Positions 58,352 to 59,662 of a stretch of 64,000 bases of DNA are shown in pieces. Both the position numbers and the translations under genes were made by a program. Below the pieces are notes generated by a model. That model had not been told where the DNA came from. It was given only the letters and a program-made list of their open reading frames with translations, and did no database searches. The stretch is taken from sequence record OM953433. The stretch is one strand, 5' to 3'. Positions within the stretch are counted from its first letter, which is position 1, and each line of letters begins with the position of its first letter. Source of the DNA: Shigella phage Henu11.

Positions 58352-58428
58352 GCACCTATAGCCCAATTGGAAGAGGCAGCAGACTTAGAATCTGTTCAGT
58401 GTGAGTTCGACTCTCTCTAGGTGTACCA
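58352..58428 (+). tRNA. tRNA with anticodon TAG (Leu-type) in class I format
   Basis: anticodon stem GCAGA/TCTGT, loop ctTAGaa; short variable region; discriminator A. Confidence 0.5.
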
Positions 58429-58435
58429 AATTAAT

Positions 58436-58511
58436 GCAGGTGTAGCAAAATGGTTATGCGGCTGACTCTTAATCAGTAAGACGATGGGTTCAATTCCCTC
58501 CACCTGTACCA
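58436..58511 (+). tRNA. tRNA-Lys(CTT)
   Basis: anticodon stem GCTGA/TCAGT, loop ctCTTaa; T-loop TTCAATT; body similar to tRNA-Lys(TTT). Confidence 0.55.
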
Positions 58512-58517
58512 AATATC

Positions 58518-58593
58518 GGGGATGTAGTTTACATGGTTAAAACATAAGTTTTGCAAACTTAAGTACAGGGTTCAATTCCCTGCTTCTCCACCA
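58518..58593 (+). tRNA. tRNA-Ala(TGC)
   Basis: anticodon loop ttTGCaa; G3-U70 wobble pair in acceptor stem. Confidence 0.7.
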
Positions 58594-58599
58594 ATTAGT

Positions 58600-58674
58600 G
58601 CATCCATAGTTTAAATGGGAAAACTACAGTCTTCCAAACTGAAGTTGAGGGTTCGATTCCCTCTGGATGCTCCA
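58600..58674 (+). tRNA. tRNA-Gly(TCC)
   Basis: acceptor GCATCCA/TGGATGC; anticodon loop ctTCCaa; T-loop TTCGATT. Confidence 0.7.
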
Positions 58675-58680
58675 AATAAT

Positions 58681-58757
58681 GCTGCTTTCGTATAATTGGC
58701 TATTGCACATCCCTTGTAAGGATGGAGATGCAGGTTCGAGTCCTGTGAGCAGCACCA
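58681..58757 (+). tRNA. tRNA-Thr(TGT)
   Basis: anticodon stem CATCC/GGATG, loop ctTGTaa; T-loop TTCGAGT. Confidence 0.7.
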
Positions 58758-58853
58758 ATTTTGAGGTCAAGTGAAAGACCGCTTGAGTCAACTGAAGACC
58801 GTAACAAATTCCACGGAGTTGAGTTAGCGGCACAACTTCAGACCTCTTTTAAA

Positions 58854-58928
58854 GCTCGCTTAGTTTATACGGTAAAGCCCCATCCTTACAAGTTGGTGAA
58901 GAAGGTTCAAGTCCTTCAGCGAGTACCA
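58854..58928 (+). tRNA. tRNA-Val(TAC)
   Basis: anticodon loop ctTACaa (stem has one internal mismatch); T-loop TTCAAGT. Confidence 0.6.
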
Positions 58929-58929
58929 A

Positions 58930-59007
58930 GTTCCAGTATCCCAATTGGCAGAGGATGCAAGCTCAAACCTTGTATTAGTGACGGTTCGAATCCGTCTTGG
59001 AACACCA
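58930..59007 (+). tRNA. tRNA with anticodon CAA (Leu-type) in class I format
   Basis: anticodon stem GCAAG/CTTGT, loop ctCAAac; T-loop TTCGAAT; discriminator A. Confidence 0.5.
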
Positions 59008-59022
59008 AATTAGGAGATTCCT

Positions 59023-59235
59023 ATGAAGCCTTATGGTAGACATGGTAAAGTTGAAATTGCAAGTTGTGGCTGCTGTGCAGCACATGATGGTGAAGAAGAT
59101 TATTACAAATGGCGTACAGACCATCGTAAACGCTTTCTCAGAAGAGATAAGAAGAGAGCTAGACAGGAATCTCAAAAGGATATTGCAGAATTAGTTCAAA
59201 TGGATAGAGCAGCAACCTACGAAGTTGTTAGTTAG
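59023..59235 (+). CDS. possible small basic protein overlapping tRNA-Arg
   Basis: 70 aa; strong RBS AGGAG 7 nt upstream; 3' 50 nt overlap tRNA-Arg(ACG). Confidence 0.25.
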   Translation: MKPYGRHGKVEIASCGCCAAHDGEEDYYKWRTDHRKRFLRRDKKRARQESQKDIAELVQMDRAATYEVVS

Positions 59236-59261
59236 GGGTTCGAATCCTCTATTCTGCACCA
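59185..59261 (+). tRNA. tRNA-Arg(ACG)
   Basis: acceptor GCAGAAT/ATTCTGC; anticodon loop ctACGaa; T-loop TTCGAAT. Confidence 0.65.
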
Positions 59262-59279
59262 AATTTAATAGGTAACATT

Positions 59280-59507
59280 ATGTATAAACTCATAGTTGAA
59301 AAACATAAAGATGACCACAAGATTGAAACAGGTAGATTTGGAGATACTTTCTTTATAGCGGTTGGTTGGCAATGTGACCCGTTAGAAGTTAGAAAGATTG
59401 TTTATAACTTTGCTGGATTAGAACTTAAGCAAGCTATCTTCGAAACATCACTACCTGAAAATAAGGATACTTGCAATAACGCATATATTCTTTCAAGAGT
59501 TCGTTAG
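59280..59507 (+). CDS. possible small protein between tRNAs
   Basis: 75 aa ORF filling tRNA-free gap; weak RBS. Confidence 0.25.
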   Translation: MYKLIVEKHKDDHKIETGRFGDTFFIAVGWQCDPLEVRKIVYNFAGLELKQAIFETSLPENKDTCNNAYILSRVR

Positions 59508-59581
59508 GGGATTAGTTTACAAGGTTAAAACCTCGGTCTTTGAAATCGAAGAAGATGGTTCAATTCCATCATCCCCCGCCA
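59506..59581 (+). tRNA. tRNA-Gln(TTG)
   Basis: anticodon stem TCGGT/ATCGA, loop ctTTGaa; T-loop TTCAATT; discriminator G. Confidence 0.6.
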
Positions 59582-59583
59582 AT

Positions 59584-59662
59584 GCTCCATTACTCCAATT
59601 GGCAGAGAGGCCAGATTTAAAATCTGTGTTATGTATCGGTTCGAATCCGATATGGAGTACCA
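59584..59662 (+). tRNA. tRNA with anticodon TAA (Leu-type) in class I format
   Basis: acceptor GCTCCAT/ATGGAGT; anticodon loop ttTAAaa; T-loop TTCGAAT; discriminator A. Confidence 0.5.

Follow-up and report, generated by a model that had tools for sequence, protein, structure and literature searches.

The long variable arm of tRNA-Leu was stated by a 2023 review to be universal outside animal mitochondria (PMC9976931). A bacterial exception is the type I tRNA-Leu(CAA) of Streptomyces coelicolor, which both its own leucyl-tRNA synthetase (LeuRS) and the human mitochondrial enzyme can charge with leucine (Fan et al. 2019, NAR; PMC6614811). Type I tRNA-Leu is thus already known from animal mitochondria and from S. 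coelicolor, and the sole study of the bacterial exception treats it as a Streptomyces peculiarity that Escherichia coli LeuRS cannot use (PMC6614811). Here we describe three short tRNA genes with the leucine anticodons UAG, CAA and UAA that belong to a bank of tRNA genes in Shigella phage Henu11 (record OM953433), analysed as a stretch of 64,000 nucleotides that we refer to as the window. Sequence comparison makes it likely that they are functional phage-encoded type I leucine tRNAs, which would be charged by the LeuRS of the host and read leucine codons. Genes of this kind are annotated in hundreds of records. What appears to be undescribed, since we could not find it reported, is that phage tRNA-Leu is often of type I and that FelixO1-like coliphages carry type I tRNA-Leu only; the literature that we searched, which missed most subscription journals, held no description of short-arm tRNA-Leu in phages.

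Structure and leucine identity of the three genes

All three genes lie on the forward strand, and each was identified by ARAGORN, by the Rfam tRNA model RF00005 and by a positional parse of the sequence: tRNA-Leu(UAG) at 58352..58428 (77 nt; 54.1 bits, E-value 8e-10), tRNA-Leu(CAA) at 58930..59007 (78 nt; 44.0 bits, E-value 4e-7) and tRNA-Leu(UAA) at 59584..59662 (79 nt; 46.9 bits, E-value 7e-8). These lengths include the CCA end, which is encoded in all three, and every score lies above the Rfam gathering score of 29. The original prediction had been made by folding by hand; its coordinates and its anticodons (TAG, CAA and TAA) coincide exactly with the ARAGORN calls, with RF00005 concurring, and its description of tRNAs of about 77 nt with short variable regions and discriminator A agrees with the 77-79 nt, the 5-7 nt and the A73 found here in each gene. 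As read from the ARAGORN cloverleaf drawings and the positional parse, the variable regions are TCAGT (5 nt) in the UAG gene, ATTAGT (6 nt) in the CAA gene and GTTATGT (7 nt) in the UAA gene, so that none of the three has a class II variable region, i.e. one longer than 10 nt that forms a stem-loop.

In Leu(UAG), the acceptor stem is GCACCTA/TAGGTGT, positions 8 and 9 are U8 and A9, and the D-arm reads GCC-C13 AATTGGAAG A22-GGC; the anticodon loop is CTTAGAA, with A37, and the T-arm is GTGAG/TTCGACT/CTCTC with one U.U. The corresponding D-arms are TCC-C13 AATTGGCAG A22-GGA in Leu(CAA) and CTC-C13 AATTGGCAG A22-GAG in Leu(UAA), with the anticodon loops CTCAAAC and TTTAAAA, respectively, and the T loops of the three genes are TTCGACT and TTCGAAT. 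Minimum-free-energy folding alone returns a four-arm cloverleaf for all three. A G1.U72 wobble tops the acceptor stem in both Leu(UAG) (58352/58424) and Leu(UAA) (59584/59658).

The bodies of these genes resemble those of leucine tRNAs rather than those of ordinary class I tRNAs. Their D-arms are of the leucine type: the stem has 3 bp, 13.22 is unpaired and the loop is of 9 nt. They do not have the D stem canonical for class I, of 4 bp and with 13-22 paired, as C13.A22 is unpaired in all three, and when compared to the ordinary GCTC-AATTGGTA-GAGC arm (4 bp, 8 nt) the window genes carry one extra nucleotide 3' of G19. Alignment with E. coli leuQPV, leuW, leuZ and leuX and with the Leu tRNAs of T4 and T5 (85-87 nt) reveals a layout, xxxN-AAUUGGnAG-Axxx, that the window genes have in common with class II Leu tRNAs, from which they differ in the absence of a variable stem-loop of 10-12 nt. 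The identity set described for E. coli LeuRS consists of A73, A14, A15-U48, G18G19, A20a and the elbow contacts U54-A58, G18-U55 and G19-C56 (PMC9976931, PMC6614811), and the positional parse finds this whole set, including U8-A14, in all three genes. Leucylation has been found to be uncorrelated with the sequence or fold of the arm, and a truncated, arm-less E. coli tRNA-Leu is active (PMC9976931).

We gauged the specificity of this signature in a set of 1,643 tRNAs built around 228 viral loci from two spacing-pattern scans of IMG/VR, for which only the listed matches were used; these patterns are unfit as a census, the short-spacing pattern having mostly matched ordinary class I tRNAs. The D-arm was defined by explicit stem and loop geometry, as a first motif (YCAAYYGGNAGAG) was too loose and also matched Lys, Thr and Asn tRNAs. 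Among Leu tRNAs, 135 of the 185 long ones and 50 of the 81 short ones have the Leu D-arm layout, against about 38 of about 1,090 other tRNAs with a short variable region. When the identity set is required on the Leu D-arm, the full signature is found in 176 tRNAs with leucine anticodons, 129 long and 47 short, and in a single tRNA with another anticodon. No other comparative evidence argues as strongly as this specificity for an agreement of body and anticodon. Published tRNAscan-SE isotype scores for the orthologues in phage Sf14 place Leu at the top for all three (67.4, 49.1 and 60.2) in a 2025 study that makes no mention of the variable arm (PMC12482277), and the Sf14 CAA gene is 100% identical to that of the window.

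The original prediction had left two alternatives, namely unusual short-arm Leu tRNAs or tRNAs whose identity departs from their anticodon. We conclude that the three genes represent leucine tRNAs lacking the long arm and not mislabelled class I tRNAs. The former alternative is thereby upheld, while the latter is not supported by the complete Leu identity set, the 176:1 specificity of the signature, the Sf14 isotype scores or the conserved leucine codons considered below. The word unusual holds relative to cellular tRNAs of the E. coli type but not relative to phages and Actinomycetota, where the short form is common. A separate case is found on an IMG/VR contig (L191:8338), where a class II tRNA with a complete Leu body and identity set has an anticodon that ARAGORN reads as ACC (Gly), which may reflect an enlarged anticodon loop or a genuine mismatch of body and anticodon.

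Conservation and distribution of the short form

Matches of window positions 58000-60000 identify the carrier of the bank as a FelixO1-like phage (Ounavirinae, myoviruses). This 2-kb query matches 257 phage records, the best being Shigella phages Sf18, Sf17 and Sf19 (97%), along with Henu12 (100% over 88% of the query); further matches belong to Ounavirinae of Citrobacter, Escherichia and Salmonella. Sf18, Henu12 and about 250 relatives all carry the bank, and their records annotate three tRNA-Leu at this place, in Sf18 by tRNAscan-SE and with the anticodons TAG, CAA and TAA. The comparison with the tRNA sets of related phages that had been suggested with the original prediction thus recovers the same three short Leu genes in Sf18 and others, and the tRNAscan-SE annotations of the relatives agree with ARAGORN in assigning neither another anticodon nor a long arm. 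ARAGORN calls no class II tRNA-Leu anywhere in the 64-kb window, whose sole Leu genes are the three short ones, although Tyr and two Ser tRNAs of the bank are class II, just as had been claimed. The complete genome of Sf18 (90,270 bp), a 97% relative, likewise contains no tRNA outside the bank and no Leu gene, class II or other, beyond the three short ones. Hence, short-arm genes are the only Leu tRNAs of its own that a whole subfamily of phages of E. coli, Salmonella and Shigella has to rely on.

Within this subfamily the genes are strongly conserved. Leu(CAA) is covered over at least 80% by 254 phage records, 248 of them at 95% identity or more (100% in Sf14 and wV8), and Leu(UAA) is found in 254 phage records (98.7% in FelixO1). 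Across about 250 Ounavirinae genomes the CAA and UAA genes are 95-100% identical, as compared to 80-95% in most for the surrounding 2 kb, and this greater conservation of the tRNA genes than of their flanks indicates purifying selection. The orthologues of Erwinia phage phiEa104 (L014) differ by compensatory stem changes. The same phage has a short tRNA-Leu(AAG) just downstream of tRNA-Val (6533-6610), in the slot of the window CAA gene; it is without a UAG gene, and its own CAA gene occupies the slot of the window TAG gene. Its orthologue of Leu(UAA) has A27.G43 at the site of a C27.U43 mismatch in the window gene. That orthologue, Leu(TAA), is annotated as 'tRNA-Undet', an example of annotation pipelines stumbling on short Leu; more generally, the short form may receive too low a score from pipelines and isotype models built around class II Leu.

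The short form extends well beyond Ounavirinae. A blastn search with the 77-nt UAG gene returns matches of about 70 nt (positions 8-77) annotated as tRNA-Leu in 321 phage records, with hosts that include Bacillus, Klebsiella, Pantoea, Mycobacterium, Streptomyces, Synechococcus, Enterococcus, Lactobacillus and Erwinia. In eight tRNA-bearing phage regions analysed with ARAGORN every Leu tRNA is 74-78 nt long, with Ser at 84-95 nt and Tyr at 83-88 nt; T4 and T5 are exceptional in having class II Leu. The length of the Leu variable region is bimodal among the 266 Leu genes of the larger set, with 81 genes at 5-7 nt (72 at 5 nt, 7 at 6 nt and 2 at 7 nt), 185 at 10-27 nt and none at 8-9 nt, and Ser variable regions are of 14 nt or more bar one outlier (n = 97). 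In 77 viral loci picked only via a non-Leu tRNA, 17 of 42 tRNA-Leu (about 40%) are short, a roughly unbiased but small sample in which the long class may include host genes flanking prophages.

Covariation and identity nucleotides are consistent with function across this wider family. In 79 non-redundant viral short Leu tRNAs, 20 base pairs are standard in 96.8% of cases (shifted controls, 42-46%), with 3-6 pair types at nearly every stem position. Of the identity positions, A73 and G18G19 are present in all 79, A15, U48 and A20a in 78 each and A14 in 77; U54/U55/C56/A58 occur in 79/79, and all six Leu anticodons are represented. The survey as a whole suggests that phages of at least four host phyla commonly carry the short form. 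A few viral tRNA-Tyr are short as well (70-73 nt), in banks of the L076, L116 and L039 type, and in Streptomyces phage Jay2Jay (L007) an annotated 72-nt Tyr (15456-15527) stands beside an 83-nt Tyr; arm loss occasionally hits Tyr and essentially never Ser.

Short Leu genes also occur in cellular genomes. A prokaryote scan, with one genome per species and a pattern combining the Leu D-arm with short spacing, yielded at least 96 short tRNA-Leu (mostly UAA and CAA), at least 24 Trp and at least 2 Thr. Most of the displayed matches are from Actinomycetota (Nocardia, Mycobacterium, Rhodococcus, Gordonia, Amycolatopsis, Corynebacterium, Bifidobacterium and Arthrobacter). Among the 96 listed short Leu genes, 72 are the lone tRNA gene within 8 kb and therefore look like chromosomal housekeeping genes, while a few lie in large tRNA arrays (e.g. 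25 tRNAs per 8 kb in Nostoc, 34 in Acidobacteriota and 35 in Thermoguttaceae). With this cellular distribution (loci L245-L364), the short form reaches further than the 'some Streptomyces' that the literature speaks of.

A recent origin of the window genes from the host was considered and rejected, as none of the three has a blastn match in 5,426 complete E. coli genomes and, with the arm left aside, they match host Leu tRNAs at only 45-64% identity. Leu(UAG) shares 77-80% identity with short Leu tRNAs of Streptomyces, Mycobacterium, Klebsiella and Bacillus phages, and the best matches of the CAA and UAA genes to short Leu outside Ounavirinae are at 68-71%. The window genes share a core defined by A9, C12-G23 and C13.A22. 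Among viral short Leu with the Leu D-arm, A9/C12-G23/C13 is found in 24 of 40 and the class II core, G9/G12-C23/R13, in 15 of 40, while long viral Leu tRNAs have G9 in 125 of 128 cases and G12-C23 in 121 of 128. A9 is tied to the short arm (49:23 versus 3:165; Fisher p = 1.6e-29, kinship ignored). The arm was probably lost more than once, often with remodelling of the tertiary core.

Probable charging and decoding, and competing explanations

We hypothesize that the window genes encode a tRNA-Leu scaffold from which the variable stem-loop alone has been removed, with the Leu D-arm and tertiary core kept and the core remodelled (A9, C12-G23, C13.A22). The transcripts would be made together with the rest of the bank, processed and then charged with leucine, most likely by host LeuRS. 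E. coli LeuRS is reported to read A73, A14, A15-U48, G18G19, A20a and the elbow of the D and T loops, and needs neither arm nor anticodon. Bacterial tyrosyl-tRNA synthetase (TyrRS), by comparison, binds the long variable arm. For seryl-tRNA synthetase (SerRS), arm size is a major identity element (PMC9976931). Because SerRS reads arm size and TyrRS binds the arm, the arm would be dispensable in Leu but not in Ser or Tyr, and this use of the arm by the synthetases would be the reason that Ser and Tyr stay long in nearly all phage banks examined. They stay long in the bank of the window too, where tRNA-Tyr(GUA) (56022..56109, 88 nt), tRNA-Ser(UGA) (58013..58102, 90 nt) and tRNA-Ser(GCU) (60688..60780, 93 nt), all called by ARAGORN on the forward strand, have long variable arms and serve as internal controls.

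Once charged, the three tRNAs would read UUA, UUG, CUA and possibly further CUN codons, which the phage uses more than its host. The window has a G+C content of 38.8%, and its leucine codons are divided into TTA 23%, TTG 16%, CTT 28%, CTA 9.5% and CTG 18%; in E. coli about 50% of leucine codons are CTG and about 4% CTA. These codons have their standard meaning in the phage. In the terminase and a protein of 253 residues from the bank, 25 of 36 positions with TTA, TTG or CTA have Leu opposite them in the phiEa104 orthologues, much like 18 of 24 positions with CTT, CTC or CTG. The partner in phiEa104 often has another Leu codon, and substitutions are mainly to I, M and V, with one each to R, G and A. 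A genetic code changed through these tRNAs is very unlikely, and they would serve in ordinary translation. The anticodon loop of Leu(UAG), CUUAGAA (58384-58390), has A37 after G36, where host tRNA-Leu(UAG) has G37 (the m1G37/TrmD site); among viral Leu tRNAs with NAG anticodons, the short ones have A37 in 23 of 38 cases and the long ones in 23 of 101.

Several points weigh against this account. E. coli LeuRS failed on the S. coelicolor type I tRNA-Leu(CAA) and was reported to be an enzyme that 'only charges type II', its leucine-specific domain favouring a large variable loop (PMC6614811). The presence of C48 instead of U48 in the S. coelicolor tRNA may explain that failure. The same study found the 5-nt loop length to be important for the S. 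coelicolor enzyme (PMC6614811), and the CAA and UAA genes have 6 and 7 nt. Leu(UAA) has the C27.U43 mismatch at the top of its anticodon stem (59610/59626) and Leu(UAG) a U.U in its T stem. The folding energies of the three genes are not clearly better than those of shuffled sequence (z = 0.08, -1.78 and -2.14), for which reason support for them as genes is drawn from the covariance model and covariation rather than from thermodynamics. Moreover, a permissive synthetase explains why loss of the arm is tolerated, and explains neither how frequent that loss is nor why the core is remodelled.

A competing explanation, which we regard as unlikely, concerns why the arm was lost rather than what the genes are. 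Loss of the arm might be a counter-defence, hiding Leu tRNAs from host or prophage tRNases for which the class II arm is the site of recognition or cleavage, so that leucine codons stay translatable when host tRNA-Leu is destroyed. Phage tRNAs have been reported to rescue infection from PARIS, OLD and Schlafen-type tRNases, and such a role would fit a phage that carries a full replacement set of Leu isoacceptors with no long Leu among them. The frequency of the short form in viral contigs (17/42), its absence from 5,426 E. coli genomes and the A37 that replaces host G37 in Leu(UAG) point in the same direction. However, the literature on Septu, retron-Eco7, Schlafen, OLD and anticodon-loop evasion yielded no nuclease aimed at tRNA-Leu or its arm; Ser and Tyr, the class known to be targeted at the arm, keep their arms in the same phages; and T4 and T5 retain class II Leu. 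In many Actinomycetota, furthermore, the short form is a housekeeping-like lone chromosomal gene for which evasion is no obvious driver, and these copies argue against evasion as the sole driver. A combined proposal, to which we assign a similarly low probability, is that short Leu tRNAs are a widespread adaptation of phages and mobile tRNA arrays and no neutral loss. Through removal of the arm and the remodelled core (A9, C12-G23, C13) they would be chargeable by host LeuRS, that of E. coli included despite the published view that it accepts type II alone, and resistant to host or prophage tRNases or other factors that recognise class II tRNAs by the arm.

We consider it highly improbable that enterobacterial LeuRS does not charge these tRNAs and that they instead have a non-decoding role (e.g. 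as decoy or sponge, or as a processing or regulatory element of the operon) or are decaying relics. In vitro, a natural type I tRNA-Leu was left uncharged by E. coli LeuRS (PMC6614811), and the variable regions of 6-7 nt in two of the three genes, the G1.U72 pairs, the stem mismatches and the weak folding energies could be read in favour of this view. Yet all E. coli identity nucleotides are kept and are near-invariant across the family, the Leu anticodons are conserved and cover the leucine codons that the phage over-uses, and an arm-less truncated E. coli tRNA-Leu is charged (PMC9976931). Greater conservation than that of the flanks in about 250 genomes, compensatory change in the stems and the encoded CCA also weigh against it.

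Charging by another synthetase, with UUA, UUG and CUA read partly as another amino acid, is scarcely credible, as the D-arm is of the Leu type and not the canonical 4-bp/8-nt class I arm, G3:U70 is absent, the signature goes with Leu anticodons of both codon boxes and with essentially no others, orthologues show Leu opposite TTA, TTG and CTA and exchange these for other Leu codons, host Leu tRNAs read the same codons, and synthetases that read the anticodon would not accept xAG or xAA. What favours it is a class I size atypical for Leu and the close runner-up isotypes of the Sf14 UAG gene (Ile2 65.7 and Lys 63.4 versus Leu 67.4; PMC12482277).

If charging by host LeuRS is true, as the conserved identity set would lead one to expect, the three genes would amount to a natural proof that the arm is dispensable for an enterobacterial LeuRS in vivo. 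The loss of the arm in Leu and its retention in Ser and Tyr would then provide a clean natural contrast for the constraint that synthetases place on tRNA shape. Compact Leu scaffolds of this kind are also of interest for tRNA engineering.

The tRNA bank and comparison with known systems

The bank spans 55464..60863 on the forward strand and comprises 26 tRNA genes (ARAGORN, whole 64-kb window) interleaved with small open reading frames (ORFs). Many of its tRNA genes are only 1-8 nt apart; Leu(CAA) starts 1 nt downstream of tRNA-Val and Leu(UAA) 2 nt downstream of tRNA-Gln(UUG). At 56348-56422 (forward strand) a further Rfam tRNA match scores 30.4 bits against the gathering score of 29 and stays uncalled when ARAGORN is run with its threshold relaxed. 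Its T-arm (GAAGGTTCGAATCCTTC) is good, the remainder is degenerate, and it is probably a decayed tRNA remnant.

The ORFs, all on the forward strand, slightly overlap some of the tRNA genes. One of 161 residues (56868-57353) extends over the first 7 nt of tRNA-Ile and has the look of an insertion, as it is absent in Sf18, where the gap between tRNA-Met and tRNA-Ile is 3 nt. One of 70 residues (59023-59235) overlaps the 5' part of tRNA-Arg(ACG), one of 75 residues (59280-59507) ends at tRNA-Gln, and that of 253 residues (59925-60686), which matches DUF7217, begins within the 3' end of tRNA-Phe. For the small ORFs of 161, 70 and 75 residues a Pfam scan gave no match. In several relatives the bank is split by inserted genes, seen as 2-kb matches broken into two to three pieces (an HNH endonuclease in Michonne and Maleficent, and 'endonuclease VII' in SFPB), and it appears to be a hotspot for the insertion of homing endonucleases, as in T4 and T5. 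Other phage regions with tRNA genes hold further RNA genes: Synechococcus phage BUCT-ZZ01 (L016) has a tRNA with a CTA anticodon (9129-9204; an amber suppressor that ARAGORN labels 'Pyl') and a permuted transfer-messenger RNA (tmRNA; 10251-10669), and Enterococcus phage TJE2 (L015) has a standard tmRNA (6301-6648).

Several known systems share features with the short Leu genes of the window. Animal mitochondrial tRNA-Leu also possesses a short variable region, with A14 and A73 as identity elements (PMC9976931), but its cloverleaf is reduced and often unstable, it is served by a dedicated mitochondrial LeuRS and it has no sequence relation to the window genes. The tRNA-Tyr of phage T5 is likewise the phage's copy of a class II tRNA and has a variable region unlike that of the host (Azam et al. 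2024; PMC13096335). There the arm is altered but kept and resistance to the nuclease PtuAB has been shown (PMC13096335), whereas in the window the Leu arm is deleted and no nuclease for Leu has been found. The class II Leu tRNAs of E. coli (leuW, leuZ, leuX and leuQPV), T4 and T5 share with the window genes the anticodons, the D-arm, A14, A15-U48, G18G19, A20a and A73, and differ in their length of 85-87 nt, their variable stem-loop and a core with G9, G12-C23 and R13 in place of A9, C12-G23 and C13.

Closest in form is the type I tRNA-Leu(CAA) of S. coelicolor, which like the window genes is a bacterial-type tRNA-Leu whose variable loop is short and which has A73. Its loop is of 5 nt (against 5, 6 and 7 nt in the UAG, CAA and UAA genes, respectively), and this loop, ACAGC, ends in C48, unlike the U48 of the window genes. 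The S. coelicolor gene is chromosomal and stands beside type II isoacceptors in a cell whose LeuRS is adapted to both, while the window genes are phage-borne, are the only Leu tRNAs of their phage and operate in a host that has no type I Leu gene in its genome. The chromosomal short Leu genes of actinobacteria recovered here share the core of the window genes almost exactly, with A9, the D-arm GCCC-AAYTGGCAG-AGGC, a 5-nt variable region ending in U (e.g. CCAGT or ACAGT) and A73.

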